Below are positions 13,034 to 61,218 of a DNA stretch of 64,000 bases, piece after piece (position 1 is the stretch's first letter; every line of letters begins with the position of its first letter). The notes beneath the pieces were generated by a model. That model was not told the origin of the DNA. It made no database searches and saw only the letters and a program-made list of their open reading frames with translations. The stretch covers positions 218,240,001 to 218,304,000 of the forward strand of contig OZ024740.1 of assembly GCA_964016885.1 (NCBI GenBank). The letters run 5' to 3'. The stretch is from Eledone cirrhosa (lineage: Eukaryota). The translations under genes were made by a program, and so were the position numbers.

Positions 13034-13068
<35 letters not shown>

Positions 13069-13071
<3 letters not shown>

Positions 13072-13244
13072 GGTGTCCCCAAAATGTATACACACGTGAA
13101 CAGCATTCTAATCAAAGTGTGTATACATTTTGGGGGACACACTGTATATATATATATATATATATATATACAGGGTGTCCCCCAAAATGTATATACACGT
13201 GAAGAGCATTCTAATCAAAGTGTGTATACATTTTTGGGGACACA

Positions 13245-13314
<70 letters not shown>

Positions 13315-13579
13315 GGTGTCCCCCAAAATGTATACACACGTGAACAGCATTCTAATCAAAGTGTGTATACATTTTTGGGGACACACTGTATATATATATA
13401 TATATATATACAGGGTGTCCCGCAAAAATGTATACACACGTCAACAGCATTCTATTCAAAGTGTGTATACATTTTTGGGGACACACTGTATATATATATA
13501 TATACAGGGTGCCCCGCAAAAATGTATACACACGTCAATAGCATTCTAATCAAAGTGTGTATACATGTTTGGGGACACA

Positions 13580-13582
<3 letters not shown>
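13069..13582 (+). mobile_element. Array of five 76-78 bp Tc1/mariner-type MITEs separated by (TA)n
   Basis: Units at 13069-13144, 13171-13247, 13312-13388, 13411-13488 and 13505-13582. TIR of about 27 bp (CAGGGTGTCCCCAAAATGTATACACAC), about 22 bp interior, TA flanks. Confidence 0.85.
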
Positions 13583-13636
<54 letters not shown>

Positions 13637-16699: not shown

Positions 16700-17342
16700 G
16701 TATATATATATATATGTATATATATATACGATAACAAGTAATCGTTATAGGTAATCCAGTTAGAGGTTGTGAGTATTCTGCGTCGTGGATAGTTTTGGTC
16801 AGAGGTAAATAATGTAATGGAGATCGAGTGACGCAACCTCGAGCGATTAGCGACCTCTAGACCCACCTGATCAATGAAACAATTGTTACTACCTGAAATA
16901 AAGCCCCTTGTTGTACAGCCAACCATGTTACTCTTCATAACTTTGCTTTCATCCTTACGGTGTCGATAAAATAAAGTACCAGTAATGCACTGGGTAATTG
17001 ATGGCCTTGTGCCTAAAGTAGAAACAATTATTTTACATATGTGTGTGTGTGTGTTTGTTTGTTTGTGGGTGTGTGTGTGTGTGTTCATTTTATTATGGTT
17101 AAATAGCGAGTCTTGTTACTCTGGTATTTCTCCTGTTTATCACAGTGTCATCACACAAGAACATGTGGTAAACAGGCGAACTTCTAGAGTAACCAGTCTC
17201 ACTATTTAGCCTTTATAAAATGAATACCTCAGCCCTCAACTACATTCGGATATATATATATATAGAGAGAGAGAGGGACGAGGCTGAGTAGTTACTAATA
17301 ACGTGTGTTAGAAAAGGGACACGAACAAGAGATAGACATTTT

Positions 17343-17417
17343 CCCTTCATCAGTTGTCTCTTAGGGGTCACAGATGTTTCAGCGCATTATAGATAATACA
17401 TCTATTTGTAGCGCGCC
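17343..17417 (-). ncRNA. Candidate scrambled-order hammerhead-like motif, family 1
   Basis: GGCGCG..AGAUGU-A-UUAUCU-AUAA-UGCGCU-GAA-ACAUCU..AGACAA-CUGAUGA. Confidence 0.55.
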
Positions 17418-17527
17418 CATAACTTATTATCAACAAGTTTTGAGGAAAAGAAAAGACAAAAAAGAGGCGATAACGGAGAGAGAGAAAGAAAAAAAAGTGA
17501 GAGAAAAGGGGGAAACACAGGACAATG

Positions 17528-17633
<106 letters not shown>

Positions 17634-18725: not shown

Positions 18726-19084
18726 CATACATACACACACAGATATACACTCAGACACACACAGACACACACACACATATATATATATATACACATACAT
18801 ATATATATATATATATATATTTCGTTTCTGAATTTGTTTAGCAAGATTCTTTATCTGAAATCGTGTGTTGAAACCGATATTGTTATACTTTGGGAGGGTC
18901 ATGTTGCCAATAAGAAACACACGCACCAGTTGCTTTCACTTCAATTTATTATATATTCATAATTTACAAACTAATAAATTTCTGGTTGGTTGGTTGGTTC
19001 CACAACCAGATAGTTGTTTATATATAGTCATAGTCCTTTCGTCACACACTCTGTGACCTCTTCAGTGACTGGGGATTCCTTTCT

Positions 19085-19585
19085 TTGTTTAGAAGGGCCC
19101 TAAATAAACATAAACTCAAACTCAATATTAAGATAGTAGAAAGACCAGGTACCTCCGTAAAAACACTTATTAGCAAGACATACCCGTTCCAAAGACCCTC
19201 ATGTATAGATAAGAAATGTATAACCTGCAAAATAAGCCCCCATATTAACTGTAAAACTAGAAATGTAGTGTATAGCATAAGATGTACTGAAGGACAATGT
19301 AGAAACAAAAATATAGTGTACATAGGTGAGACAGCTCGTAGTATAGGGGAACGAATAAATGAACACTGGCGAGGCCTCCAAGATAATAAAGAATCATCTG
19401 TGCTCTACCAACATGCTAAGATAGAACACAGGGGTAGATTAGAGAACATAGAAATAAAAATAGAATCCACACACAGAAAAGATGCAATGTTTAGGCAAAT
19501 TACAGAGGCAGTAAGCATAAAAGAATTACAACCAAAATTAAATAGAAAATATGAGTGGAACAGCAACATCACAACTTACAATTAA
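19085..19585 (+). pseudogene. PLE C-terminal Cys-rich linker plus GIY-YIG endonuclease (5' truncated)
   Basis: CIDKKCITC, VVYSIRC..C..YIGETAR..ERINEH..H, R.ITEAV.I...PKLN motifs. Confidence 0.9.
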
Positions 19586-19886: not shown

Positions 19887-19931
19887 AGTCACTGAAGAGG
19901 TCACAGAGTGTGTGACGAAAGGACTATGACT
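19887..19931 (+). ncRNA. Minimal type I hammerhead ribozyme in the PLE pLTR (inverted copy at 19026-19070)
   Basis: AGUCA-CUGAAGA-G-GUCACA..UGUGAC-GAAA-GGAC-UA-UGACU. Confidence 0.85.
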
Positions 19932-20120
19932 ATATATAAACAACTATCTGGTTGTGGAACCAACCAACCAACCAGAAATTTATAAGTTTGTAAATTTGTA
20001 AATTTATAAATTTATGAATATATAATAAATTGAAGTGAAAGCAACTGGTGCGTGTGTTTCTTATTGGCAACATGACCCTCCCAAAGTATAACAATATATA
20101 TATATATATATATTTTTTTT

Positions 20121-20219
20121 TTAAAGCGATGAAATAACAATGAAGGTTGGAAGATCACTGATGAAGAACTAATTTTATTCATATGTAACCCATGTGCAAC
20201 CACGCAGCACTCCATTTTT

Positions 20220-20220
<1 letters not shown>
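20121..20220 (+). ncRNA. 3' half of the scrambled hammerhead-like motif, same family as 50707-50834, inside (TA)n
   Basis: AAAGCGAU-GAAA-UAAC..AAGAUCA-CUGAUGA, followed by the shared tail. Confidence 0.55.
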
Positions 20221-20291
<71 letters not shown>

Positions 20292-20294
<3 letters not shown>

Positions 20295-23200
20295 ATAATA
20301 ATAAATTTGAAGACTAAAATCCAAAGAGGGCTCGATAAGGATAAATATATATCAAATATATAAGAACCGTAGAGCAAAACTTTATTAAAATAACAGATTA
20401 AAGTTTAAGCAAAGAATCGCTGCTTTCACCCTTAACGGGATCTTCTGAAACTAACAAAGTCAATCTGTGAACGCAGAAGTGAATATTTCAAAAAACGTTG
20501 CAACCAGAGGAAGACAGGAAGACGATACTTTGGTTCGTGGAAACGTTCCCTGGCAAAGAACGGGAAAAAACGAATATAATACGTCATTATTTGGAGCGGT
20601 GAAAAACAATTACACGCAAAGACAGAACCACGTTTATGGTATAAAAGAAGTCGTAGACTAATATTCTCTTAGGTGGTTCATAGAGACGTTCTCTGGCATT
20701 GAACGGAAAAAACGAAGATAATACGTCATATGTGGAACGTGGAGAACAATTGCACGCAAAGACAAAACCACGTAAATGGTATAACTGAAGTCGTAGACTA
20801 AAATTCTAACTAGGAAACCGAATGATTCTCCGCTTCAGAGTTAAGAATAAAGTAAATAAAATACAGAGGTAATTGAAATTAAATAAATACATACACGCAT
20901 CCAAATACGTACATACACAAGCATACGCGAAAACACTCGCCATAGGTATACAAATACACGCACATATAAATATGTGTGTGCGTACGTGTATACAAATAAT
21001 TAAATAAATGTATATAAATAAATAAATACGTATATAACAAGCGCACACACATACCTACATGTAAATACACAAATGTTCGGAGACGCACGTCAAACAAAAC
21101 ACACACACACCCTACATACGTACGAACCCGCATACTCACACAGACGCAAAACTCACGTATACACATGACCAAAAGCATATGTACCAGAATATATAAAATA
21201 TACGCCATAACATATACAATCAAATATACGTACGAGAAAGTATACGTACCTTCACAAAACATACAGGTAATATATACTTACCTATGCATATAAGTAATGG
21301 TATAAACATAGCATATACTTAGCTACCACATCAAGACGTAAAATATCCGCGTATAGATTGTACTATCCGTTAGGGTATAATGTGGGGCTGTAATACAGGA
21401 AAGTTTTGTGCAATTTATGTTTACAAGCCGAAATTGCCTCAGATTTTTTGTTTAAGATGTGGTCTGTGGCGTAGAGTATTTCCAGGGCCCCAGTGGCGCA
21501 GAGGTCACATGGTCTTTTATTTCCGTTATACGATCTATCCCTAGCTAGGATCTCCCAGTGTAACTTATATTGGGTGTGGTTGTCTTTTAGACTCCAGATA
21601 TAAGCTGAAAGTGACGTCATATTCCTTCTTAGAGGGTAACGAAAAGAATGGGTATGCATGTAAAGACGCTGCTTGAATCTATTGGCGGTTAACCCTATGT
21701 AGGCCCTACGGGACGTGGGTGTTTCAACCTTACATTTGTAGACAATGTTACTAGAGAGGCATTTCCCGGATAGGGGGGCAATCAATCCGATTCCTATAAT
21801 TACAGTTAGAACTAATTACAGGGTTGCACGTGTTCCTACGTCTAGGTAGTTTAGCTAAATTTGAAGCTGTGCTGTTATGTGCAAGGTTAGGAGTCGTAGG
21901 GTAAGAAATTTTAATAGTATTTCTATTAAAAATGTTACTATATTTATGTGTAGGGGGAAAATGCTTCGTAATAAGGGATAGAAAGATCTTAACTAATGGT
22001 GTGGCCACCTCCATATTATATGGTGGGTTATACCATATAATGCGTTGGGATCTATTTCTTCTAGGTCTATTCTCGTACTCTGTATATGCTACCTTATCAA
22101 CAAATCCACTCCGAGAAAGTGCTTCATTGTAATATGTAGAATGGTCGTTGAAAATAAGCTCGTTAGTAGATAGACGGGAAAGCCTCAAAGAAACGTTTCT
22201 TACGAGGTTCTTGGTTATGCTGGCAGGATGGTTGGAATGCTTACTTATGTAATTAAGCGTATCATTCGGCTTTCTATACGGGTAATACAACCCATTCGAT
22301 AAATTGGGGGTAACGTCGAGGTAATTAACGACCGAGAGGTTGGCCTCAACCTGTATAGAGAGGTTGAAGCCTTTAAAGATGGCTGTGAGTTCTTTTCTGA
22401 ACCTGTCGCAAGCACGAGGGCCGCACTTAGTCATGGTCAAAAGACTATCATCACGGTACAAACCACCGCCCACGTTGGGGAATTCGTCCTTGATAGAGAA
22501 AAGAAGGAAAAGGCCGATAAGATCAGTAACCTCCGCAGAATCGCTGGCGCCCATACTCACATCGAATGGGGTACTATTAGATTTTTTAATCCAAATAGAG
22601 TCGTCGAAATTAATCACCGACTTACGGGCATTGAGGATGACATCGACTTCGAAATTCTTAACCACTGTGAGTGTTTTAGCGAAATTGATAGCTCTAAGGA
22701 GAAGTGATGGAGGAGTAGTAATTATTGAGGGGCCAAACTTCTAATTTCAGGTATAATTCTATCAAGAATCCTTTTACTAAGTCTGCCTAAATCGGACTTC
22801 GTAGGGTTAATAAGCCGAATAGAGGGGTTGTTCGGAAAATTGGATTTGTGATCCTTCAGGGTAAAGTGGGGAGAAATAGGGTCCAGAGGTTCGGTCCGGT
22901 CCAGGATGTTGAGATCAGAGGTGATTTTAAACCCAGCATCGTTGATTTCATTGATGACGCACCGATTAGTTTTACGGTAATCCTTAGTTACAGCATTATG
23001 TAGTAGTTGATGGTAAGTACTGCGGTCCACTTGATATAGGTTGCCAGTTTTGTCGGAATGGACGTGCATGGCATTAGAATCCTTAATAGAACGAATTCTA
23101 TTCTTCAGGTCTTACTGGAAGGAATTGCTCCTATTCCGAAATTTGATACTCCGTATGAGTTCAAAGACATTATTTTGGAAGGGTAGCTATGTTGGGTTGC

Positions 23201-23354
23201 ACGGAGGGTTATTATAGGTTTTAAACCCAAATTTATCCTGTTTGTTGTCTGGTTTTCGCTGATTATCGAAATAAAGGGCACGCCAACGCAACCTTTTAAT
23301 GAACGGGTCTGTTTTCTGTATCAGGTGTTTTAGGTATATTTTCCTGCTTGGTAA
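20292..23354 (-). mobile_element. Near full-length degenerate PLE (RT plus GIY-YIG, CxCx5C-type linker, Hydra-clade-like) with long 3' UTR
   Basis: ORFs 22722-23069 (DKTGNLY, TLKDHK.NF..NP..RLINP), 21751-22665 (FDVSMG..D.AE, LYRDD, WYNPPY) and 21363-21785 (IVYKC, YIGLT..FK.R, CDLC). Both ends abut (TA)n. Confidence 0.9.
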
Positions 23355-23368
23355 TATATATATATATG

Positions 23369-23423
23369 AGATTCTACACGACTAGAACTGTTTCATTCTT
23401 TAGAAATCTTCAGGAATCTGGCT
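23369..23423 (-). ncRNA. Type I hammerhead in an inverted pLTR fragment (23368-23660)
   Basis: AGAUUC-CUGAAGA-U-UUCU/AGAA-U-GAAA-CAG..GUG-UA-GAAUCU. Homologous to 31190-31240. Confidence 0.8.
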
Positions 23424-23659
23424 TTCCAAAAATAAATGTTATGGTATTTATATATTTTCAGGTGGTAGAAGAGGGTGGGGAGTTGGATGGGTGGAGGTCA
23501 TTGGTTGAAAGAAAAGGGAATTCATTAAAGGCTAATTCTTTAAGGCTATAATTTATATTTAGAGTGACAAAGGCAGAAAGAATTCTATAAACAAGTTCAG
23601 AATGGGGTGCCACTCCTTATTTTTAAGTTTCTCTTAAGCTAACAATGGCTATATTTCAG

Positions 23660-25155
23660 GTGTCCCTGGAGCAGAATATCTGAGGCAATATCCTGGTTCC
23701 AAGAATTACCCGACAAACGCTTCCTGCAACTCGACATAGAAAACTACTATGCTTCTATCTCGGAGCCCCTCCTGAAGGACGCAATTACCTTTGCCAGGAA
23801 TTTTACCACCATAAGCGATGCTGAGCAAGATGTTATCCTCCATGCCCGTAAGACCTTCCTATACCACGATGGATCTTACTGGCTAAACAAGAAGTCTCAG
23901 ACCCCATTTGACGTCAGCATGGGAGCGAGTGACTCGGCTGAAATTAGCGACCTTGTGGGCCTGTACATTTTACATCACCTGAAGAACCTCTTTACTAGCC
24001 TAACCGGAGGTTTATACCGAGACGACGGCCTCTTCGCCCTGCACAAGGTTAACCCCAGAACCACCGATGGGTTTCGGAGAAACTTAAGCTCGTTCTTCCG
24101 TAATCTAGGATTTAGTATAACTATAGAATCTAACATGACCAGGGCCAACTTTTTAGATGTCACTCTCGACCTGGATACTTCCTTCTATTACCCGTACCAC
24201 AAACCTAATGAGTCCCTTAGATATATTAATGTTAATTCTAACCACCCCAAAAACATCACTGATAACTTAGTAAAAAGCGTCTCTATTAGAATCTCTGGCC
24301 TCTCTGCCAATGAAAATATTTTTAACGCTTCTGCCTCCTACTACAATGACGCCCTCGCCCACAGCGGATTTAAAGAAAAGATAACCTACCTAGAAACCAC
24401 CGCAAGACTGCATAGGAGGAATAGGCATGGGCCGATTAGCTGGTACAACCCTCCCTTCAATAGAGAGGTCTCTACACCTATAGCTAGGATTTTCTTCACT
24501 TTGCTGAACACACACTTCCCCATACAACATAGGTACTACACCATCTTTAATAAGAACACAATAAGACTCTCCTACTCCACCACACCTAACCTAGCTAGGA
24601 ATATAGCCAATCACAATTCTAAAAAATTAAATAAGCCAACCACCTCCGAACCCAATCCCCGGACTGGAGCTTTGTGTAATTGCCTAAATAAGGAAGCCTG
24701 CCCACTTGATAACAAATGCCTGACAAATGATATCGTATACAAATGCGATGTCATCTCAGGCACCGATGATTGCAGCAACAAAAAACTTACATCGGCATGA
24801 CTTCCAATAACTTTAAGACCCGCTCCTTCAGAAGACCGGACAAATCAAACCAGACAACACTCGCCTCCTATGTTTGGGACCTCAAAAGGAACTCCACCCC
24901 CTTCACGCTTAAATGGAAAATACTCCAGAAGCGCGCTCATACAACGGAGGACACAAGTGCTGCGACCTCTGTATCTCAGAGAGCTACGAAATGTTATTCG
25001 CCAAGGGCCCGCTACTGAACAAACTCTCTGAACACTGCCCGAACTGCATGCACAAAAACTTTGCAACTTTCAAATACCTTAAGCCAGTGTTAAGGCCCGA
25101 TGGCAAAAAACGATGCCCCCCCCCCTTTTTTTTTAAACGCCTGCCGACAAAATAG
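23660..25155 (+). pseudogene. 5'-truncated PLE ORF (RT plus GIY-YIG, Hydra-clade-like), frameshifted near the C-terminus
   Basis: LQLDIENYYASI, MGASDSAE, LYRDD, NFLDVT, WYNPPF, CNCLNKEAC, IVYKC, YIGMT, CDLC. Confidence 0.9.
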
Positions 25156-27782: not shown

Positions 27783-29790
27783 AGTAGTAGAAATTTAATT
27801 TAGGGGTAGAGGAATGAAGACTTAAGTTTTGAATTACTTTGAATGGAAAGAATACTTTGGGGGAGAAAAGAGGTCAAGCCGGTGAAAGGTACACGAAAAT
27901 TTGATGTTATTAAAGAATAATGCTAATGTTAAAACCGAGGGAGAATAAAATGTTAAGGTGTTAGTGAGAAATACCAATCTTATTTAAAACACAAGGAATT
28001 TAGATCTATAACAAGAAATTAAATTGATTGATAGGTATACTTATAGGGATAAATTTATATTAATTCATCTGGATGTGATAAATAAGAATTAGATGTTATT
28101 AAAGAATGTTGTTAAAAACGAAGGAAAATAAAATTTGGGGATAAATGTATTAGTGAGAAATACCAATCTTATATAGACTACAACGAGTCTAGATTCATAA
28201 CAGGAAATTAAAATAGTTTATATGTATACTTTTAGGTATTAATTTTAAGAAAAGAGAGCTGTAAGAGGGAAATAAAATTATGAAGTTCTCTGCAGTAAAG
28301 TACTAATTATAGGTTAACTAAATTAAAAAAAAATAATTATAATAATATGTAAAATATAAGTGTAAGGTGTATATTAATTAGGTTTATAATATTTGAAAGT
28401 TTTTCTAATTCTATGATTGCAAGATATAATTAATTCTTATCGCTTATTTAATAGGATATCCTTAGATTTCATTATTTCAAAAAGTTCCTGGGAGCATAAT
28501 CTACACTCATATCTGTTATTTTGATAAGGAGGGAAGGCCCTTTTGAGCACACTCCAGGTCAGGTTGTAATTGATATTCTCTTTTTCTATAATTATTAATT
28601 GTTTCAGCCAAGGATGTTGTATTAGCTAATGCGGCATTTTAAAAACTATGTTTGTGGCTATTAAATCTTACTTTAAATTGGTTAGAAGTAGCTCCTATAT
28701 ATGAATAAGTTGAGTCCTTAGTGCTAATTTTACATTTATATACTATGTTATTAATAAGACAATTTCCCTTTAATGGGCAATTTCTTTTGTTTCTACAGTT
28801 ACAACCATTCGTGAATATTATATCAGGGGAGATAGTCAAATTTGGTGTGGAATTTACTCGACTTGTTATATGTGAAGGAGATGGTGGTTTGTTGCGGTTT
28901 ATTTTAGTATTATGGTTGGTTTGATGTGTTGGTGGAATATTCGTGGTTTTTTTACATTCATATGCATAGTAGGCACTTATATTTTGTTGTATATTTTTGG
29001 TAGTGGAGTAGGAAAATTTGACAGTTGATGTATTTAAAATTTGATGGTATTTATGGTTTGGCGGGAAGTTTTTCTCTAGGATAGTAAAACATTTTTAGGG
29101 ATATTATCTTTAATTTGTAGATTAAAAGGAGCATTATACCAAGTAACTCGTCTATTACGGTTTCGTTGTTGTTTTTTTATATGTATACGATGTATCAGGA
29201 TGTTTACTAAGAGAGTTGGTATTAGTGAATTTATTATATATAAGTTTAGTTAGATTAACTGATTTAGGTGTTTTTTATATTTATACGATGTATCAGGATG
29301 TTTACTAAGAGAGTTAGTATTAAAATTAATACCTAAAATTATACATATAAACTATTTTAATTTCCTGTTATGAATCTAGACTCGTTGTAGTCTATATAAG
29401 ATTGGTATTTCTCACTAATACATTTATCCCCAAATTTTATTTTCCTTCGTTTTTAACATTCTTTAATAACATCTAATTCTTATTTATCACATCCAGATGA
29501 ATTAATATAAATTTATCCCTATAAGTATACCTATCAATCAATTTAATTTCTTGTTATAGATCTAAATTCCTTGTGTTTTAAATAAGATTGGTATTTCTCA
29601 CTAACACCTTAGCATTTTATTCTCCCTCGGTTTTAACATTAGCATTATTCTTTAATAACATCAAATTTTCGTGTACCTTTCACCGGCTTGACTTCTTTTC
29701 ATCCCCAAAGTATTCTTTTCATTCAAAGTATTCTTTCCATTCAAAACTTAAGTCTGCATTCCCCTACCCCTAAATTAAATTTCTACTACT
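27783..29790 (-). mobile_element. 5'-truncated Hydra-like PLE flanked by inverted repeats of about 460 bp
   Basis: ORF 28639-28839 (CNCRNKRNCPL.G.CL..NIVYKC..YIGAT..FK.R) and WYNAPF near 29140. Arms at about 27783-28246 and 29317-29790. Confidence 0.85.
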
Positions 29791-45149: not shown

Positions 45150-47851
45150 TACTTGGGGAGGGTCATATTTGTGTAATAATATTGCCAGAATTAATAATAG
45201 AACACTCTCACTGTTTGGTTGATTTTCGCTTCTGTGTCTTTTATATCGGTTAATTTAATTTATTCGGTCCACAATGTTGCCGTTGACTGACCAACGGTCA
45301 AAAATACAGATACAATATAAACACAAACACATATATATAGTCTATCAAAGTTCTTTCGTTGCACATCTGCAACATCGTCAGTGGTGCTATTATGTTTCCT
45401 CCCGTTGCATTGTATGCTTACGCCATGTTTATTTAGTCTGTTTATTTATTTATTTATTTATTTGTTTTTGTTTTTTTTTTGTCTTCTCTGCGCATGCGTT
45501 TGCGTCTGTGTATAGTGTTTTGTTTGATGTGTGTTCTTGTTTGGGTGACTGTGTATTGGTTAATGTATTCTATCTTAGTTTACTAGTGTGTGTTTATATG
45601 TGTTTGTTGTTATTGTGCTTGTGTATGTATCTATTTATTTATTTATTTATTTATTTATACTTCTCTTAGGTCAGTGCTGTTTGTTTTGGTGTTGTTGTTA
45701 TTCCATTCATTTTCTGTTTAGCCTTGGCCTTCTAAGTTCTATTTCGCTGGCCTCTCTGATTTGCCTATCTGCTGGGTCATTTCTATGTTTAGATATTATT
45801 CTAACTTCTATGTTGTCTATGTTACCGTTGTGTTGTTGTCTGACATGTTCGTATAGTACTGAACCGTTTTTTCGTCCTTTTAGTTCCCCCCAGTGTTGGT
45901 CTATCCTTTCACCTATGCTACAAGCTGTCTCGCCTATGTTATGTTGTTGTCATGTTTCTGCATGTACCCTCTGTACATCTTATGCTATAGACTACGTTTC
46001 TAGTTTTACAGTTTATCTGGGGGGTTTACCTTACATATGATACATTTCCTATTAGTACAGTGGGTTTTCTTAAAAGGGTAGGTTTGCTGATCAGGGATTT
46101 TATGGTGGTTCCTGGCTTTTCTACCACCTTAATTTTTAAGTGGGTCTTTCTCAGGGCCTCTCTACACTGGTTAGTTAATTTCCCTCCAGGGGTAGCGTCC
46201 CCAAAAATGTCATTTTGGTATCTCTGGTTGTCGTACCATGAGGTGACTTTCCCTATCTTATGTCTAGTCCTATCTAAGCTATTCCATGATTTGCTCCTGT
46301 ATAATGGGCAAATTCCTTTCATGTCCAGTTCTATGAGGGTCTTATATTTCTCCGTGGCTCCTTCGTATACTCTGATTCTGTCTCTTTTGTTGTAGCCAGA
46401 GAACTGCATGCGGTTGATGAAGTGTTGGATGTGTCTTTCCATTTCTGTTGGGTCGCACATGCGGGACACGTTCTTCATCACTCGTACCAAGTCTGCGATC
46501 AGAATATTAAACTTAGCACTACTGGATATTGCTGAGTTTTTGAGTATCAGGTATTTGGAGGCCATGGGTTTAGCATAGTGTGAGTGGAGAATTTGGGCTC
46601 TCTCGTCTATAGTGTTAATCCAGAGTTCCGTGTCTAATACAGGTAGTCTATTGTTAGGTTGTTTGGAAGGGTAGTCGATAGTCACAGTTATACTCTGGTG
46701 TATGGAATTAGCTATCTGCTGGATGCTTTCCATTGTGCTACGTTCTAAATCACACTTGTTAGTGCTCTCTTGTGGGGATGTCCTTATTACCATATTGTTG
46801 TCGTCTACGTAACGAGAGTACATGATGAGGTCTATGGAGCTCTCATCAAGGAGATCTTTTAGTCTCCTTTCCCACCATACCATAAAAAGGTTGGCAACGT
46901 CACCAGCTATGCTGACGCCAATGGCTGCTCCCTCATTTTGCGTGTAGATCTTCTCTTGAACTTGAATATGTGGCCCTTTAGGGTAGTTTTGATCCTAGCG
47001 CCTATTGCATCTGCGACCATTTTTCTTACCTGATCATTGTTTTGGGGGGTCCGTATAGCTTTGGTCCACCCAATCCACCTTCCCATGGGAGTCTTTTTTG
47101 CCATTGAGGTTATGGTGAGGGGTCTACCTCTTATGGGTCTACTAGGGCAGAAACGTCTAAGGTCATGGCTGTCTAGGTAGTCAGTGTCGTAGGTAAGTCT
47201 ATGTAGGAGGCCCAGTTAGTCTGTGTTGACGTCTCAGAACTCCACCTCACTCTCAATGATCATCTCCACACATTTTTCCACAGCAAAATCAATGTTAATG
47301 GATGGGTACAGTGACACCACATCCATGCTGCCTATTATGCAGTTGGATAGGTTCCTGTTTTTGTTGCACTCACTGACTCTGCTGAGGAGGTCCTCTGTAC
47401 TGTCACATACATCTGGGGACATCTTGACTATGGGGCGTATAACCACCGAGAGGAAGTAGGAGATCCTGTAGTTGCTAGCTATATTTGCTCCGCATACAGG
47501 TCTTGTTGGTGGTCCTGTTGTCGGGTCGTCGACTGTCTTGTGGTATTTGCGGAGCCCATACAATGAAACGGGAGGAAGCATACAAGCACCACTGACGATG
47601 TTGCAGATGTGCAACGAAAGAACTTTGATAGACTATATATATATGTGTTTGTGTCTATATTGTATCTGTATTTTTGACCGTTGGTCAGTCAATGGCAACA
47701 TTGAGGACCGAATAAATTAAATTAACCGATATAAAACACACAGAAGCGAAAACCAACCAAACAGTGAGTGTGTTCTCTCCAAGTATAACAATATTTGTTT
47801 CAACACACGATTTCATATCAAAAACCTCGCAAAACTAATTCATCGCCGTTA
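45145..47851 (-). mobile_element. 5'-truncated PLE (RT plus GIY-YIG) with inverted pLTR; relative of 18821-20096
   Basis: ORFs 47234-47614 (YGLRK.HK..P.RPV, SMDVVSLYPSI) and 46026-46883 (RYVDD, LPVLD), with GIY-YIG remnants at 45700-46050. About 47557-47775 is the reverse complement of about 45200-45415. Confidence 0.92.
47587..47631 (+). ncRNA. Minimal hammerhead in the pLTR (mirror copy at about 45342-45386)
   Basis: CUGACGA-U-GUUGCA/UGCAAC-GAAA-GAAC-UU. Stem I is weak. Confidence 0.65.
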
Positions 47852-48159: not shown

Positions 48160-48165
<6 letters not shown>

Positions 48166-48673
48166 GTTCTATTTAAATTGTTGAGATACAACAAGCAAAT
48201 ATTTGTATAACTGATATAAAGCACTCAACAAATATTTGGAGTAAAAATACGATATTAACAAATGGAAACTATATTTATAAAACCATATTTATTTCATTAT
48301 ACATATTTCAAGGACACCAAGTTAAATTATGGTGTGCTTTCATCAGATAAAATACAATATAGATCAGTTTTATAAATAAATATTGACATACCCTTAAAAA
48401 ATGCAACCATTACTATTGGAAGCTCCCGGTTGCATTTTTTAAGGGTATGTCAATATTTATTTATAAAACTGATCTATATTGTATTTTATCTGATGAAAGC
48501 ACACCATAATTTAACTTGGTGTCCTTGAAATATGTATAATGAAATAAATATGGTTTTATAAATATAGTTTCCATTTGTTAATATCGTATTTTTACTCCAA
48601 ATATTTGTTGAGTGCTTTATACCAGTTATAAAAATATTTGCTTGTTGTATCCCAACAATTTAAATAGAACTTT

Positions 48674-48676
<3 letters not shown>
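48160..48676. repeat. Fold-back of about 515 bp with a hammerhead in each arm (48482-48540 +)
   Basis: Arms of about 250 bp. Motif CUGAUGA-AAG.ACACCA/UGGUGU.CUU-GAAA-UAUG-UA. Confidence 0.88.
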
Positions 48677-48727
<51 letters not shown>

Positions 48728-48730
<3 letters not shown>

Positions 48731-49752
48731 AAGCATTGTGTAATGAGGTATAAACGTTAGAATATGTGTAATAAGGCCAAGACAATGCAGGTATGGACAT
48801 AGAAAAAAGAATGCAATAGTGAAAGATATTGATGTGAATTCGTCTTTCACCTTGAATTTATTTAAATGTCCTTAATTTTCGAGATAATATCTCTTCTTCG
48901 GAGGGAAGTAAAGGTCTCAAACCAGCGTCTTTAAATCTCTAATGAAGCCATGCTGACCGGAAATAGTATAGAGTATCTGTTCTAACTTTAATATCAAAGA
49001 ATTAAAATTAGGTGGATAAAGAGTAGTCTCCCTTTAAGAGGGGTTTGTTTATGATTTGTTTTTGTTTTTGTTTTTTTTTTTTTTAATTTTATATGCGTGC
49101 CTGTATATGTGTGTTGGAGAATGCATGAAGGTGTAGGTATGTGGGTGTGTGGGTGTGAGTGTGGGAAGATAGGTCTAATCGTAAAAGTGGGGGGTAGGTG
49201 TTATCTGGTGTTAGAACTGGTTTTGTGTGTGTATGTGTGAGAGAGAATAAGTGGAGGTGTGCGCGTGCGTGTGTGTGGGGTGTGTAAAAATGGGGCTAGA
49301 GGCTCTATCAGGTTATAAATTGGGTGTTGAGCTCTAGTCTATTATTGATTGGTGGATGTGTTCTATCTATAATAAGTGCTTCCTTAATTCTAAGATTGCC
49401 GAGGTTTCTTTCCTTAGTTTCTATCCTAACTGTTATGTTTTTATCGGTGTTTTTGCATTTAACTAGGTGTTTCTTAAATGAGGAAGCGTTAGTATTGAGG
49501 TGTTCTTTTATTCTTATGTGGAGTGGTCTGGTGGTGCTACCTACGTAGAAGTTGTTGCATTTGTCACACTCTAGTCTGTATACTACGTAAGCCTGGTGGC
49601 ATAAGTCTGTGTCGTTGATGGGGCAGTTGGCTAGTCTGCAGCAGTTGTCAAGTCTGGTGGAGTGTCTCTTAGCCAGCCGTCCGCGCAAAGAAGGACCCGA
49701 GTGGGCCAGTTGAATATCCAGACCCTCTCGTCTGATGGCTCTGCGGATGGCG
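48728..49752 (-). mobile_element. PLE 3' fragment with GIY-YIG ORF (49308-49688) and a degenerate hammerhead (about 48868-48908)
   Basis: VVYRLECDKC..FYVGSTTR.LHIRIKEH..IKEAL.I....P.IN. Ribozyme motif CCGAAGA-A-GAGAU/AUCUC-GAAA-AU-UA. Confidence 0.88.
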
Positions 49753-49943
49753 TAAAAGGAAAAGAAAATGCTGACAAATTTTTCCAGTGAAAAATAGTTT
49801 AATTAGGAATAAGTATAAATTAGTAATAAATATTGGTTCGTATTCAGTTTTAGTTTTAAGTTTTTACCGGTTGCGCATTTCTAATGCTTTTCAAAAATAA
49901 TTTTGAGATAGGGCGCCCGTGATGTTTGCTCTAATCTGTTTGC

Positions 49944-50687: not shown

Positions 50688-50760
50688 TATATATATATAT
50701 ATATATGAAAAAATGGCGTGCTGCGTGGTTGCAAATGGGTTACATATGAATAAAATTAGT

Positions 50761-50834
50761 CCTTCATCAGTGATCTTCCAGCCTGCAATGGTATTTCATC
50801 GCTTTAAAGATCATATACCTCTGCTTGGTGCGAG
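50761..50834 (-). ncRNA. Candidate scrambled-order hammerhead-like motif, family 3
   Basis: CUCGC-A-CCAAGCAG-A-GGUAU-A-UGAUCUU-UAAA-GCGA-U-GAA-AUACC-A-UUGC..UGG-AAGAUCA-CUGAUGA. Confidence 0.6.
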
Positions 50835-51324
50835 CAACGGCTATAGAATGTCGTTGGGACACGTAAATAGGGGGAACGAGCGAGACAATAAACAAACAAA
50901 CAAAGATGATAATGCAACGAAAAGTGAGGAAGAAGGAGTCAAGTCCCTGAAATCGATGAACATAAGTTCTGTGAAATCGTAGACGAGAGAAAAAAGAACA
51001 TCCAACCTGGTTGAAATATGAGCGAGGAAAGGATTTCGCACAGGTCAAACGGGAGGAAGTGATGGAGGGGGAGTAGCAGAGAGTGAGTGAGTGAAAGTGT
51101 GAGGAAGAGGCTAACTGAGAGAATGACTGGCAGAGGGGTAAAAAGAAAGTGAGAGATACAGAGAAAAGGAAAGCAGTAAGAGAGAAACAGACGGGCTACA
51201 GCGGAGGAAAATATATAAATATATGAAAAAATGGCGTGCTGCGTGGTTGCAAATGGGTTACATATGAATAAAATTTATATATATATATACATATGAATAA
51301 AAATAGACCGAGAAACAAGATTGT

Positions 51325-51398
51325 CCGTCATCAGTAGCCTGCTGATTTTCATTGGTATTTCTTCGTATTAAAGACTAGATACCTAAAATCAGTGCGAA
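51325..51398 (-). ncRNA. Candidate scrambled-order hammerhead-like motif, family 4 (second copy at 51863-51936)
   Basis: UUCGCA-CUGAUUUU-A-GGUAU-C-UAGUCU-UUAA-U(A/G)CGAA-GAA-AUACC-AAUG-AAAAUCAG-C-AG(G/A)CUA-CUGAUGA. Confidence 0.6.
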
Positions 51399-52014
51399 CG
51401 ATAGCTAAATTACGTTATCGGGACAGAGGAAAACAGAGGAAAGGAAACAAACAACATGGTAGTAATGCAACGTAAAGAGAGGAAAAGAGAGACAAGTCAA
51501 TGAATCTTGTGGGCTTAAGTCCGACAAATCAAATGACGAGAAGAAACAGACGCGTCCGAGCCATGAGAAAAGTGAGAAAGGAAAGAATATTTCACGCAGG
51601 TCAGACGGGAGGAAGTGAGAAGGAGGAGTAGCAGAGAGTGAGTGAGTGAAAGTGTGAGGAAGAGGCCAGCCGAGAGTGTGCGACCAGCAGCGGGGGTGAA
51701 AGAAAGCAGGAGGTAAAGCAGAGAGAAAGAGGATAGCAGTAAGGTCACAGAAAAAAATACGAACCACAGCAAAGGGAAAACATATACGTGAATGAAAAAT
51801 GGCGTGCTGCATTGTTGCGAATATGAACATATGAATAAAAATAGACCGAGAAACAAGAATGTCCGTCATCAGTAGTCTGCTGATTCTCATCGGTATTCCT
51901 TCGCATTAAAGACTAGATACCTAAAATCAGTGCGAGCGATAACTAAATTAAGTTATTGGGATAGAGGAAAACAGAGGAAAGGAAACAAATAACATGGTAG
52001 TAATGCAACATATA

Positions 52015-52272: not shown

Positions 52273-52330
52273 ATACCTGATGATGTCACCGGATTCATAC
52301 TGAACCCGGTCATTGAAATGATCATAGTAT
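52273..52330 (+). ncRNA. Type I hammerhead with palindromic stem III, between short inverted repeats (52194-52218 / 52357-52381)
   Basis: AUAC-CUGAUGA-..ACCGG/CCGGU..-GAAA-UGAUCA-UA-GUAU. Confidence 0.75.
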
Positions 52331-52780: not shown

Positions 52781-52812
<32 letters not shown>

Positions 52813-52813
<1 letters not shown>

Positions 52814-53441
52814 AACAATTAAGTTAAAAATGTACATCTACATATGCATACTGAAATACTAGTATGCATATGAATACACACACGTATACATATGTAGATG
52901 TACCAAGTCTTTCACTGGTTACTTTACTGTGAGTATCCAGCTATTCTGTATGTAAACACACAGACAAACCGGTTTTTAGAGTCATACTGGTTTTTGAGGA
53001 AACACCTTTCCTCTAATTTAATTTCGTTTCGTTATTTGTTTTTATCGTCTCCGTTGAACCGGTACGTACTCACACTCTATGCAAATTAGTCTGCCCACTA
53101 CTAATTTTCATAGAAAAAGCATATAACGATATGTGCTTTTACGATTCTCCAGAAAGGCCGGTAGATAGGTAAATATTGCTGATGAGTTGTAACAACAACG
53201 AAACTAGTTCAATATTCCTTGTCTGGCTTTCTGGAGAATAGAGGAAAGGTGTTTCCTCAAAAACCAGTATGACTCTAAAAACCAGTTTGTCTGTGTGTTT
53301 ACATACAGAATAGCTGGATACTCACAGTAAAGTAACCAGTGAAAGACTTGGTACATCTACATATGTATACGTGTGTGTATTCATATGCATACTAGTATTT
53401 CAGTATGCATATGTAGATGTACATTTTTAACTTAATTGTTT
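52813..53441. repeat. Inverted repeats of about 200 bp enclosing a hammerhead
   Basis: 52813-53013 is the reverse complement of about 53240-53441. Confidence 0.9.
53172..53216 (+). ncRNA. Type I hammerhead ribozyme
   Basis: AAUAUUG-CUGAUGA-GUUGU/ACAAC-GAAA-CUAG-UU-CAAUAUU. Stem I is extended by UUCUCCAGAAAG/CUUUCUGGAGAA. Confidence 0.88.
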
Positions 53442-53504
53442 AAGCGTCAGTCATACAAAAGTGAGTTACAAACGAAACGAAATTTAATTTCGTTTCGTTA
53501 TTTG

Positions 53505-55615: not shown

Positions 55616-58600
55616 CTACAGGCTGATATAGAGAGAAGGCCCATTCACTCGGGCCATTCTCGCTACTTTCACCCATCTTTCATAAAACTTGCTGGGGTAG
55701 AGCACCTCTCTCTCCATTCTGATCCTTCTTCTAAAGTGGTACTTGAAAAAAAAGACCAGTTGTTGGCCGGAGAGAAAGGTGTCTGACCTCAGCCCTTTCA
55801 ACCTTGTCCACCATACAACTTCTTTCGCCATGGCTATCACACAGAGGAAATCCGCCTCTCCTTCGTTTTTGAAAGGGGGGGGGGGGCGGTTTGATTGTGA
55901 CAATGGTCTCGGTGGTCAACCGGATTGGTCCCACCCGCGACAGTAGTCGTTCTACATAGCCCCACAGGTCAGCAACGTCCGGGCAGTGTACGAATGCGTG
56001 TGCGACGGTTTCCTCGTCACGCACGCATCTTGGACAGATCTTCTTCGAGGGGTCCCTACCCGGGAGCCCGTGTCTGTAGAGCTTGTCCCGAACGGGTAGA
56101 GCTCCTCGGTAACATTGCCAAGCCAGGGACTTTTGGAAGTTGTCCATCGGTCCCGGGCCAAACGTCCTACCGAACAGACTGGCCAGCTCGTCTTCCTCCA
56201 TGCCCAGAGCCTCTCCGAGAGCGTCGTCGCACTTACTGCGCACCAACCCTCTATAGAATGTTGAGGTTGAGTCTCCACTGATTGCCGGATCCGCTTGCCA
56301 GAGGGCCGTGAGCGCCTGAGCACATTCAATGTGCCAGTCGCCCACTTTTCTCGGTCTTTGCTTGACCCAGGATTGCAGCTCGGTGAATGAGACGAGTCTC
56401 GGAAAGGCTCGCCTCACAAACAGGGCCCACACCGGCTGACCGGTGAGGAATACCTGGAGGTGCCGTAACCTTAATGCGTGTCTACGCATCGTCAGCCACG
56501 GCATCCTCAGGCCTCCGTTCGAAGGGTGTTGACAGCAGATGGTTCTTCACACCAAAGGAGCCTGCTTCTTCCAAAGAAATCGGAAGAGCGCGCGCTCCAT
56601 TTTGGCGAGGGTTTTCTCTGGGCAAGGCACGACGGTCAAGCGGTAGTAGATGACGGACGCTATATAAGCGTTCACCACCTCCGCTCGACCTTTCAGGGAT
56701 AGTTTACACTCGGCCCACTTCTGGGCGAGTGCAAACACCTTGCCCGTTACATCGTCCCAGTTTTTCTCCACCTGGAGGTCCGGTCCGAACCAGACTCCGA
56801 GCAGCTTCACCGGTCCCTCCGTCCAGCGTCCGACGATGCCGTCGGAGGGCATCGTTTTGCCCCTCCACGTCCCGAGTTGCAAACTGACGGACTTGTCCCG
56901 GTTCAGCTTGGCTCCTGTGAACCTTTCATATTCCTCCAGTAAGGTGCCGATCTGCCCGATTTCCGAGGCGCACGACACCATTACTGTCACGTCATCGGCG
57001 TAGGCCGACACCGCTTTCCGCAATCCCGGTTCCAAGGGGATGCCCTGCAACAGCTCTAGCTTCCGCAGTAGTGGCTCGAGAGCCAGCACATACAGGACGG
57101 AGGAGAGAGGGCATCCCTGTCGAATGGATCGCGTGATTTGGAACGGCTCCGAGAGGTAGCCGTTCACCTTGACCCTCGAGCAGGTGTTGCTGCTGTGCAT
57201 TGCAGCAATCCAGCCCCTGAAAACGGGTCCGAAGCCTGCCGCCGCGAGCACCGCATCCAGGTACCGATGGTCAACCCTATCGAACGCTTTAGATTGATCC
57301 AAGTTGATCAGGGCCCCACCAAAGCCGGGTTCGTTCCCTACCCTCTCTACGATGTATCACATGAGGTGGAGGTTGTCGTGTATGGACCTGGACGGGATTG
57401 CGCATGTCTGCGCTTCTCCCACCAGGTTCCCGACGACAAGCGCCAACCTCTTCGTTAACACCTTGGCCAAAATCTTTAACTCTGTGTTTAGCAGAGTTAT
57501 GGGCCTGAAGTTATTTATGTCATCCTCCTTGTTCTCGTCCTTCCTCACCAGCGTGACTACGCCCTTGGTCACAGAACTGGGAATTCTCCCGTTCTGTTGC
57601 CAGTTGCAGTAGACCGCCTCGAGGAGACCGGAGAACAAGCCCGGCATCGCTACATAAAGTTCGTATGGTACCATCGAGACCCGGAGATTTGCGTTTGCCG
57701 CATTGGCTCAGCGCTTCCCCTATTTCAGCGGCTGAAATCGGCCTCTCGCAGGACTTCGCTTCCCCGTCCGAGAGCCGCGCCAGACCGTCGAGGTATGGAG
57801 CGAAATCCATGGCCCCACCCGGCCCGCCGCCCCTCCCGAACAGTCGTGCAAAGCGCCGTTGAAAAGCCGCGCTCATCCGCTCAGGTTCAAGGATCACGCG
57901 TCCATCCTGGTCTTTCAAAGACCGAATCGTGGACTTGTTTCCACTTTTTGCCTCTGTCACTCGGGCCCAGCTAACAGCTTTGGCTCCCTCGTTACCCAGA
58001 GCACGTATTTTACTTTACTCCTGACAACGCAGCCCTCGTGCTTCGCATCAAAGAACTGGTCTAGGGCCGTTCTTGACGCCAGCACGCCGGCCACGTTTCC
58101 ACTCCTAATCGCCTCTTCTACTCTATTTGTTAATTCCCTTTCAGTTCTATTCCTATCTGATGCTAATTCCCGACTAAAACCTATCGATTCTATTCTAATT
58201 TCTCTCTTGAGAGAGCCCCGCCACCTGTTGTTGACGCCAGCACGCCGGCCACGTTGCCACTCCTAATCGCCTCTTCTACTCTATTTGTTAATTCCCTTTC
58301 AGTTCTATTCCTATCTGATGCTAATTCCCGACTAAAACCTATCGATTCTATTCTAATTTCTCTCTTGAGAGAGCCCCGCCACCTGTTGTTGACAATTTCC
58401 CCCGTCAAACGCTGCTTAACTAGTGTGCTAATCCGCTTACTGTAAGCTTTGTTTGTCGGTAAAGACAAGTTTAGCTTCCAGTAACCGGGTCCCTGTCTAT
58501 GAGTTCTATCAAGGTTGACCACTCCGGTCACCAACTTGTGATCCGAATAGTCAACCATGAACATTCGTGGACAGCTTAATATGTCCCTATCCTTATTTCT

Positions 58601-59218
58601 AACTGGGAACCTATCTAGGTACGACCTAGATCTTCCGCTGCGATTACTCCACGTCCACCGTGGCACAGTCGGAAAATCTAGTCGATATCTATCGGCCAGA
58701 TCAAATCGGCCGATTAATCGTTTGAGGCTGTTACACCCCCCTCTATCGGGACATGCCCCTACATAGTCCCAACGTGCATCCAGGATACCATTCCACTCCC
58801 CCACTAAAAGCAAGGAGCAAGACGTTCCCAGGAAATTCTCCAGGCGTCGGAAGAAGTCCGGTCGCGGTGTCCCAGATGGGGCATACGCTGCCACCAGCCT
58901 GAAAGCTCCACCTTCACCACTGCCGACGTCTAAAACCACCAGTCGACCCTCCGGGTCCAGGTGTACCTTCTGTGTGGCAAGACCCAGGTATTTTCGCAGC
59001 AGAACGACAACCCCACCCCCACCCCTCGGCTGACAGAGAGATGCGTAGATCTCAAAGTCGTCGAAGATGGGGGCCAGTTGGCGCTCGCTGCTGATCCTGG
59101 ACTCGCAAATAACCATTACATCCACTCTGTGCGACCTGAGGTCATTTAAGAGTTTGCCCTGTTTCCAGGACATCCCCAAGCCGCGTGCATTCACACATCC
59201 AACTCTTATATTGGCCAT
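55616..59218 (-). pseudogene. Tx1 ORF2: APE endonuclease, reverse transcriptase and C-terminal CCHC; frameshifted
   Basis: NARGL, SYLDR, SDHK; KSPGLDG, NFRPITLLN, DQSKAFDRV, RQGCPLS, YADDV; CPRC...ETVAHAFVHC. Confidence 0.92.
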
Positions 59219-59260
59219 GTTGGTGCTGAAGAGGTAAAAAGGAAGAGGAAAGGAAATTAC

Positions 59261-61030
59261 TTACCTCTTCGTCTCCTGGGGACCAGGCTGCACAATTTCC
59301 ATGGGGGTGTTGGAAGGGTTGTTTGGTGGGGTGGTGGTTTGTGGTGGGGTGAGGACATCAGTGTGTGGTGGGATTAGGGTGTTTGGTGGGGTGTGGGTGT
59401 CTGGTGTGGGGGTGGGGAAACATCTCAATAGGACGCTGTTATGTGGTTTGGTGCAGTTGGTCCCCACATGCATTGGATGGTTCTTTTTCAAAGTTACATA
59501 GGTTTCCGTTGGGACCCTAATCATCATTAGGTGCGGTTTGTTCGCTGCGTAGGTGAAAGTGATCCCTTCGGTTTCCACCGAAGGGTTATTTTCTATCGCT
59601 TTCATCAACGTTTTATTGTTCTTGTTAATGTATGTATAGAGTTTTTGTTGTGTTGTGTTTGTTTTTGTTTGTTGTTCTTGTGCGTGTTTGCGTTTTGTAG
59701 TGCGTGTTATGTTTTGGGGAGGGGTGGGTTTTTTATTTGTGATGTTTGTTCTGTTTGTGCTGGTGGTTGTGTGTTTGTGGCATTTTTGTTAATGTGGTGC
59801 CTTTTTTTTCCTTTTCACCTGTTGAAAGGGTTCTCCCTCGTCGTCACTGGGTGACGTTGATACGGAGTCCTCTTCCGTGTTGTTGGGGAGGGGTATATTT
59901 TGGGGTTTTGTTGTGGTTGCTTTTGTATTTGTTTTAGGTGGGGAGGGGTTGGGTGGAACAGTGTTTTGTGTTGTTATTTTTCCGTGTTGTTGTGGTGGTG
60001 GTGGTGGTTGTGTTGTTGTGTTCGGGGTTGGCAGAAGAGCCTTTTTTTTTTTACTCGTTAATTGAGGACAGGCAGCCCTCAGGTGATCCCTGCTTAAGCA
60101 GTGGTAACATGACGGCAGCCTTCCCTCCACTGAAATGTTTATATAAGTTAGCCCGTCCAGAGTCACGCGTTGTGGGATATTCGCTATTCGTTCTGGGCTC
60201 ATTTGCACCAGAACTTCTACGGTGGTCCCACCAAATACACCTCCGGAGGACTTTCCTATTGAAATTATCTTGTCTTCGTCAAAGTTAATTATTCCACATA
60301 GTATCCACCAAATGTTTACATTTGGTGTGATACTCATTATTTTTATTCTTTGTGTTCTTTTTCCCCTGTATGTGGGGTAAAAGGTGAAGCGGGGGGACAC
60401 AATGGGTGCTACCGAGTACTTTTGAGCTGTTGACTGGTTGTTCATCAGCACCGAAATGCTACCAAACAGTTTACCTTTTTGTATGAAGGTTAAGTCCTTC
60501 ATTGCATCTTTTAGAACCAACTCAATTTCATTTTGTGATAATTGAGCTGGTTTTCTTGTTTCGTTCGATATTGTCCTGAAAACCAAAGTTTTCAGGACAG
60601 CCTCTCTGCGTAATTCCTGTGGAGAATTGATGCTAAAAGCACCGTTTTCGCCAAAAGTCACGAATTGTTTTGCGTCTTGTAATAGTTGTTTAGCATTTGT
60701 TATGTCTATTGGCGTGTATAGTTCGTTTTTTTTTACGGTCTGTGCGAATGTTGTTTTGGTGTTGTTGTCTTTTTTGTTACTGTCACTGTTGGTAATATTG
60801 GTGTTGCTATTGTTGCAGTTGTTGGTTGTGGTGTTATTGTCATTGTTCTTGTTGGTGTTGGTATTATTTACCGGGTTTGGTTTCGTGGTTTCGATATTTT
60901 TCACGTTTTTCGATGATGCGAGGGGGGAAGGCTGCAAGCTTTGTACTCCTACCTTCCCTCCACCACTTTTCTTAGTGGGCGTGGCACTCACGACAGTGTT
61001 CGAGGTGGAAATGGCATCCATTGCCACCAA
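59261..61030 (-). pseudogene. Tx1 ORF1 gag-like protein with zinc knuckle, interrupted near 59789
   Basis: 413-aa ORF with CYHCLSRDHLRAAC (CX2CX4HX4C). The continuation at 59261-59608 ends just before ORF2. Confidence 0.8.
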
Positions 61031-61218
61031 GTCTACAGTTTTTAGATGAAAATTGAAAAATTCCGCCCCAGAAAGGGGCGAAAATTAGTTGACTCAACGT
61101 CTGACGGCCCAGGCAAGGGGTTAAACTAAACAATGTTATTAAATTGAGCAATAAACTCACAGTTTTTGTGACAACAATCCGTAAAAATCCGGAGCAAAGT
61201 AAATCACGTCTATATCAA

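Follow-up and report, generated by a model that had tools for sequence, protein, structure and literature searches.

The stretch of DNA analysed here (hereafter the window) comprises 64,000 nucleotides of the Eledone cirrhosa genome (contig OZ024740.1), is rich in microsatellites, and holds many retroelement fragments. Two neighbouring insertions on its minus strand, A and B (Table 1), are bounded by (TA)n at both ends and, as the original prediction stated for positions 50707..52010, consist of two related non-coding units. The terminal repeats of B (51828-52010 and 51290-51472) are identical at 170/183 positions in self-alignment at an offset of exactly 538, whereas the control offsets 536, 537, 539, and 540 give 47-50/183, which bears out the predicted partial tandem of about 1.3 units with a 538-nt period. 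The corresponding repeats of A (50701-50758 and 51219-51276) agree at 57/58 positions at an offset of 518. The A and B units are identical in 363/487 aligned columns (74.5%), and the alignment continues across the unit junction; because this junction is colinear in both insertions despite 25% divergence, the unit has a defined short length. Given the 13/183 sites at which its repeats differ, B may be older than A or may derive from a mixed tandem, and A looks young. A segment of 60-70 nt (51053-51113 and the matching part of B) is far better conserved than the rest and may represent a promoter, a binding site for the reverse transcriptase (RT), or a product of gene conversion. In addition, A is the immediate, co-oriented neighbour of B in a window that offers 92 TA tracts, an arrangement that may reflect chance, re-targeting of the family's own flank, or a single compound insertion.

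The family is represented in the window by four separate insertions, including a solo 3′ fragment of subfamily A and a divergent third variant, C; a profile search of the window returned nothing beyond the six known segments, and generic repeat finders were either swamped by microsatellites or restricted to periods of ≤500. A and the solo copy have one end exactly in common, the other end being variable. As expected under target-primed reverse transcription, this fixed end is taken as the 3′ end, which would make the minus strand of A and B the transcript. A 9-mer at the 3′ terminus of the element (opposite strand; 50710, 51228, and 51796) also occurs in the 3′ UTR of a neighbouring Penelope-like element (PLE; 19832, plus strand), giving four copies against 0.3 expected, and resembles a YY1 site.

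Table 1. Features of the insertion family and of its predicted ribozymes (positions within the window)
Feature	Position	Strand	Description	Basis
Insertion B	51291..52010	-	5′-truncated partial tandem, 1.34 units; non-coding unit of 538 nt	self-alignment
Insertion A	50707..51276	-	partial tandem, 1.1 units; non-coding unit of 518 nt; one ribozyme copy	self-alignment
(TA)7 tract between B and A	51277..51290	.		sequence
39-nt terminal segment	51789..51827	-	at the internal junction of B, missing from the B 3′ end; homologous to the last 40 nt of A	alignments
Block conserved between A and B	51053..51113	-	33-39/40 matches per 40-column window vs 15-31 elsewhere	
Solo 3′ fragment, subfamily A	20111..20229	+	in (TA)n; 106/118 identical to A; same 3′ end as A	
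Variant C	about 17262..17529	-	divergent third variant; 5′-truncated, microsatellites on both sides	
Rearranged hammerhead, upstream B copy	51866..51936	-	A13G at 51898, probably inactive; predicted cut 51916/51915	
Upstream B copy, 5′ parts	51936-51931; 51921-51917; 51916	-	stem II 5′ strand; stem III 5′ strand; H17	
Upstream B copy, stem I	51915-51910 with 51878-51873	-		
Upstream B copy, 3′ parts	51905-51900; 51899; 51872-51866	-	stem II 3′ strand; G12; CUGAUGA	
Rearranged hammerhead, downstream B copy	51328..51398	-	core intact, one stem II mismatch; predicted cut 51378/51377	
Rearranged hammerhead in A	50764..50838	-	core intact; predicted cut 50814/50813	
Rearranged hammerhead in C	17417-17347	-	predicted cut 17397/17396	

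The surroundings hold broken PLE coding fragments of several families, with RT-like and C-terminal GIY-YIG frames (19034-19585, 21363-24800, 28639-29094, 45900-47632, and 49308-49802). Ordinary minimal type I hammerheads occur in PLE fragments at 19027-19069, 19888-19930, and 53175-53213, and further ones were recognised by eye at 52277, 45381/47592, 48346/48490, 53701/54433, 31196, 40039/40046, 23413, and 40586; several form inverted pairs, and all were missed by Rfam at the gathering threshold. Long inverted-repeat structures surround such fragments at about 52800-53445 and 48160-48680. Neighbouring PLE fragments were considered as autonomous partners of the family and rejected, as the GIY-YIG frames at 19034-19582 and 49311-49802 represent C-terminal endonucleases and BLAST revealed no common terminus. 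The former frame carries an ordinary type I hammerhead and is separated from the solo copy by (TA)n; a homolog search with the latter returned 22 unnamed proteins. Other residents of the window include a decayed non-LTR element of L1/Tx1-like type, whose frames resemble ORF1, endonuclease, and RT (55700-61100, minus strand; labelled from translations), a MITE-like tandem array of inverted-repeat units of about 80 nt with (TA)n between them (13035-13632), broken DDE transposase-like frames, presumably pogo-type (8247-9438, minus strand), and a dispersed repeat with nine copies of one 20-mer, which is probably an octopus SINE.

The description of the units as ORF-less holds in the sense that they are non-coding, but not literally, since stop-free frames of 111-166 codons cross both A and B. 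None of five such frames matches Pfam, and 18/18 indels distinguishing A from B have lengths not divisible by three; on these two grounds, coding potential can be ruled out. The strand bearing the open frames is 68-69% pyrimidine, and the GC content of the unit is 43%. Folding of the units is no better than that of shuffled sequences (z +1.33 and +0.46), and when folded as circles they are 39-42% paired.

On the minus strand, the box CUGAUGA occurs in both repeats of B (51872 and 51334), confirming the motif anticipated in both repeated ends, and once in A (50770). None of these three boxes is followed by GAAA within 83 nt, which excludes type I, and no type I, II, or III placement was found for them on either strand. 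A structural descriptor places the blocks of all four full copies in the order cleavage site, GAAA, CUGAUGA, i.e., in the non-circular, type-SGC order. The original prediction had suggested that the two motif copies of B could complement each other in cis; there is no such need, as each copy contains all three blocks together with its own 5-bp stem III. The layout reads [stem II strand] - [stem III strand, NUH, stem I strand] - 4 nt - [stem II strand, GAAA, stem III strand] - 12-13 nt - [stem I strand, CUGAUGA], and the predicted structure has all three stems crossing, and both RNA ends exit from the core between A9 and N10.1. The motif lies about 95-110 nt before the fixed 3′ end defined by A and the solo copy. 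The predicted cut triplet is NUH in 4/4 copies and the core nucleotides are intact in 3/4, the exception being upstream B, where G replaces the conserved A13. Every copy in the window has a blemish: besides this A13G, stem II of downstream B and stem I of C each contain a mismatch, and position 10.1-11.1 is unpaired in the in-register helix of A, whose stem II 5′ strand may be either 50834-50829 (4/6 pairs, in the same register as in B) or 50838-50833 (6/6 with G-U). The usual G10.1-C11.1 pair is found in 0/4 window copies. An HDV-like fold, considered by eye, was dropped once the hammerhead blocks had been fitted.

The descriptor, which was written after the motif had been seen and accepts A or G at position 13, yields four matches in the 64-kb window, all in this family, compared with 0.04 on average (at most 1) across 100 dinucleotide-shuffled windows. 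A looser descriptor covering all six block orders, with GAAA required, recovers 3/4 copies plus one alternative placement in B, along with four weak matches at three unrelated CUGAnGA sites. When the four copies are aligned without gaps, pairing holds in 20/20 cells of stem III over five columns (a sixth column pairs in C only) and in 23/24 of stem I; these counts come from three lineages related by descent and from the same copies used to derive the structure, which is thereby favoured over the controls, so that the controls are indicative. Double-sided (compensatory) changes affect two pairs in each of stem I, stem III, and the upstream stem II, or 6/18 pairs overall; the covariation score was reached by 0/500 shuffles, and pairing drops from 89% to 26-47% when the partner strand is slid by 1-3 columns. 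Rfam returned no match in the whole window at the gathering threshold and no ribozyme family among nine matches in the region of A and B at E<=10, which is the behaviour expected of a permuted motif. When bacterial and archaeal genomes were scanned with a pattern, 0 matches resulted. A purely local duplication carrying a chance or dead motif with no ribozyme function would account for the adjacency and common orientation of A and B, the mismatches in each copy, and the silence of Rfam; set against the shuffle control, the compensatory changes in three helices, and relatives located 30 kb away in separate microsatellites, it is very improbable. On this modelling, the motif is in all probability a selected hammerhead in S-G-C order.

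Stem II distinguishes this motif from published permutations. The strand preceding GAAA finds a partner in 20/24 cells in a strand located 7-13 nt upstream of stem III, whereas with the bases after CUGAUGA (the contiguous stem II) it pairs in 10/24 cells and gives no stable helix even when a bulge of 0-4 nt is allowed. The upstream helix has predicted energies of -6.2, -3.2, -5.9, and -7.7 kcal/mol in the four copies, matched or exceeded by 4, 184, 90, and 9 of 2000 shuffles, respectively, the helix matched by 184/2000 being that of downstream B. Modelled in this way, stem II is quite probably formed by the strand upstream of the cleavage site, which amounts to an SGC/CSG circle with its opening between A9 and N10.1, a layout not among the six published permutations; a full break at this point would then have to be tolerated. 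In Eckert et al. 2023 (PMC10085705), the insertions on record at A9/N10.1 comprise one or two bases, and CUGAnGA and stem II are assumed to be inseparable, the blocks being unbreakable; an extra nucleotide between A9 and G10.1 is also described for natural hammerheads in PMC4209133 and PMC3705267. A phrase search of the literature for A9/G10.1 insertions found no paper.

With type SGC, represented by HRIMA-1 and its variants (PMC10085705), the window motif has in common the S-G-C order, the conserved core, a short linker between stems I and II, crossing stems, and possibly a helix that links stems I and II at their far sides around CUGAUGA. Measured against that type, the block order, the core and NUH (3/4 intact), and the covariation of stems I and III agree, whereas the contiguous stem II does not: in type SGC, stem II directly follows CUGAnGA, whereas its 5′ strand here precedes the cleavage block. 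Type SGC RNAs are, moreover, known there from metatranscriptomes, whereas this motif resides in animal genomic DNA. One could nevertheless read the motif as a type-SGC hammerhead of the ordinary kind, its contiguous stem II being vestigial and the upstream pairing incidental or regulatory, since the block order, the 4-nt linker, and an enclosing helix of -7.3 kcal/mol in upstream B and -6.6 in C match that type, positions 10.1-11.1 could pair in A and C, and Naiad_Smim, inspected by eye, appears as SGC with a 3-bp contiguous stem II. The enclosing helix is, however, weak in downstream B and A (-1.6 and -0.9 kcal/mol), the contiguous stem II falls short as described above, and five unrelated Naiad lineages, again judged by eye, have a 6-bp Watson-Crick upstream helix abutting G12, so that this reading is improbable.

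Non-LTR retrozymes, to which the original prediction had assigned the units, are described in PMC7229834 and bioRxiv 10.64898/2026.07.22.740005 as having type I hammerheads, units of 150-450 bp, dimers to long multimers, highly self-paired circles, and a GC content below 45-50%; the families listed from 35 species in Li et al. 2026 (bioRxiv 10.64898/2026.07.22.740005) were built on type I descriptors. The window element resembles the metazoan retrozymes of Cervera and de la Pena 2020 (PMC7229834) in its non-coding, low-GC tandem units with one hammerhead each and a presumed dependence on PLEs, and differs from them in its non-circular hammerhead, units of 518-538 nt, 1.1-1.34-mers, and pyrimidine-rich, poorly structured sequence. 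A classical retrozyme, in which minimal type I hammerheads dimerise between tandem copies and release a 538-nt circle, would explain the tandem, non-coding units, their low GC content, the single CUGAUGA per unit, and predicted cuts in B that lie 538 nt apart (the B-to-A distance is 564 nt), and PLEs and retrozymes as a rule carry type I motifs in dimeric form (PMC4209133, PMC7229834). The three boxes lack a downstream GAAA, however, a minimal type I scan gave three matches in the window and none within A or B, the unit is not self-paired, the arrays reach just 1.1-1.34 units, and the core of upstream B is mutated, which together make a classical retrozyme extremely improbable. The element works like a retrozyme, but its self-pairing, unit size, and type of hammerhead place it outside that group. 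The minimal type I hammerheads found in PLEs are characterised by a weak stem III and the need for dimers (Cervera and de la Pena 2014, PMC4209133); the window motif likewise has its site in the terminal repeat of a PLE-type element and would tolerate extra sequence between 9 and 10.1, but has a stem III of 5-6 bp and a different block order.

Among PLEs, the closest architectural parallel is provided by Naiads, which, according to Craig et al. 2021 (PMC8557442), favour (TA)n and occur as 5′-truncated partial tandems with a one-ended tail of 30-40 bp. The same text describes them as being without canonical hammerheads, an absence used to question the importance of ribozymes for PLE transposition, while some carry an unexplained lone CUGANGA near the 3′ end, termed 'HHR_half_core'. 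The window element agrees with them, as so described, in lacking a canonical hammerhead, in (TA)n insertion, 5′ truncation, partial tandems, a one-ended tail (which the 39-nt segment of B at 51789-51827 resembles), and a lone CUGANGA near the 3′ end, and differs in that its units lack a GIY-YIG/RT ORF and measure 0.52-0.54 kb compared with 3.4-4.4 kb. Because the Naiad-defining ORF (N-terminal GIY-YIG, C-terminal RT) is absent from the units and stem II is not that of type SGC, the element is neither a Naiad proper nor a standard type-SGC ribozyme. Its non-coding, 5′-truncated partial tandems in (TA)n, dispersed relatives, and hammerhead-type motif near a fixed 3′ end uphold the earlier suggestion of a non-autonomous, PLE-dependent element.

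Inspection by eye of 53/54 Naiad consensus sequences from the Craig 2021 supplement (Naiad_Cmel left out), covering about 200-280 nt at the 3′ ends and motif matches further in, placed non-circular layouts in 17/53. The split layout of the window motif was recognised, by eye and within the visible sequence, in 8/53 (Naiad_Amil, Aacu, Anas, Plae, EuTe, Obim, Ovul, and Bfor), which represent five independent lineages and include both Octopus Naiad families with a complete end. As judged in the same manner, these have a 6-bp upstream stem II that starts with G10.1-C11.1 and abuts G12, with one mismatch each in stems I and II of Naiad_Aacu and a 2-bp stem I in Naiad_Bfor. By eye, Naiad_Ptep presents a variant with stem II as a hairpin, Naiad_Smim a near-standard SGC, Naiad_Esco a degenerate S-G-C with a 4-nt linker as in the window copies, and six nematode Naiads (Nbra-1, -2, -3, Hcon, Hpol, and Asuum) an intact CSG with an enclosing helix. 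In the visible part of the other 36/53 ends, including all bivalve, hemichordate, and four Darwinula families, the blocks were not placed by eye. Beyond layout, no similarity of the window element to the visible published Naiad ends was seen by eye, and the terminal 10-mer of the element has no match in the Naiad consensus file, where line breaks can hide matches.

These comparisons bear on whether the units derive, as 3′ UTR or pseudo-LTR remnants, from an autonomous Naiad-like element, in which case the ribozyme would be real and would belong to a long element. Naiad insertions are heavily 5′-truncated partial tandems, the position of the ribozyme relative to the 3′ end fits the Naiad consensus ends, and C is known as a 3′ fragment only. 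In A and B alike, however, the sequence upstream of the ribozyme reaches the 3′ end of a previous unit after about 520-540 nt, at a homologous position in both and with no coding remnant; a 3.4-4.4 kb element truncated at random would not give the same junction twice, which renders a remnant unlikely. The reading we prefer, with a probability of roughly two in three, is that of a short (518-538 nt) non-autonomous retroelement, most likely mobilised by Naiads and equipped with a rearranged, self-sufficient hammerhead, of which A and B represent two subfamilies. The common architecture and target point to Naiads as the helper, with odds somewhat better than even. The window offers no recognised Naiad ORF, and the Naiads of cephalopods are said in PMC8557442 to have been inactivated long ago, which is hard to reconcile with the apparent youth of A.

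For cleavage, transcription, and the purpose of the cut, we infer the following scheme. A transcript read through a tandem or started in flanking DNA would fold the triple-crossed hammerhead within one unit, and the ribozyme, acting as a monomer, would cut about 95-110 nt before the fixed 3′ end. This cut may trim read-through or tandem transcripts to a defined end, and cuts in successive units would yield unit-length RNA. A PLE reverse transcriptase-endonuclease would then prime in (TA)n, copy the RNA, and stop early, giving rise to insertions of 0.2-1.3 units. The 5′ boundary of the solo copy, which lies 1-6 nt downstream of the predicted cut, is what would be expected if a 3′ cleavage product had been reverse-transcribed, a single, post hoc case. 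Copies of more than one unit would require an uncut tandem or circular template, with which the extension of B 95 nt past a predicted cut is consistent; the existence of a circular monomer RNA is nonetheless doubtful. The release of a 538-nt monomer, as originally proposed, agrees with the spacing of the predicted cuts in B, but A13G in the upstream copy makes such a product from this locus unlikely.

The wider picture of hammerhead permutations is framed by a small literature. According to Eckert et al. 2023 (PMC10085705), non-circular permutations come from metatranscriptomes and metagenomes, the genomes of known organisms containing none except for one weak bacterial case, and type CSG is reported from just two metagenomic sequences. 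No report of permuted hammerheads in animal genomes or Naiads was found in a survey based mostly on titles and the beginnings of abstracts, with subscription journals outside it, and for hammerhead variants a paper of November 2026 refers to no more than Eckert 2023 and two other publications.

If the predicted structure cleaves, the statements that permutations are lacking from known genomes and that CUGAnGA and stem II are inseparable would need revision, as would the reported lack of hammerheads in Naiads, and the unexplained 'half core' would gain meaning. A class of ribozymes and non-autonomous elements would become searchable by a simple descriptor, and RNA engineering would gain a new scaffold in a hammerhead whose two RNA ends emerge at A9/N10.1. 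With odds slightly better than even, the motif may thus represent a seventh natural hammerhead wiring, open at A9/N10.1 and active, and the missing ribozyme of much of the Naiad clade; non-circular forms (split, SGC, and CSG) would then be widespread in animals, across at least six phyla, and this locus would be the first member of a Naiad-dependent, retrozyme-like class of elements, missed by every type I-III search.
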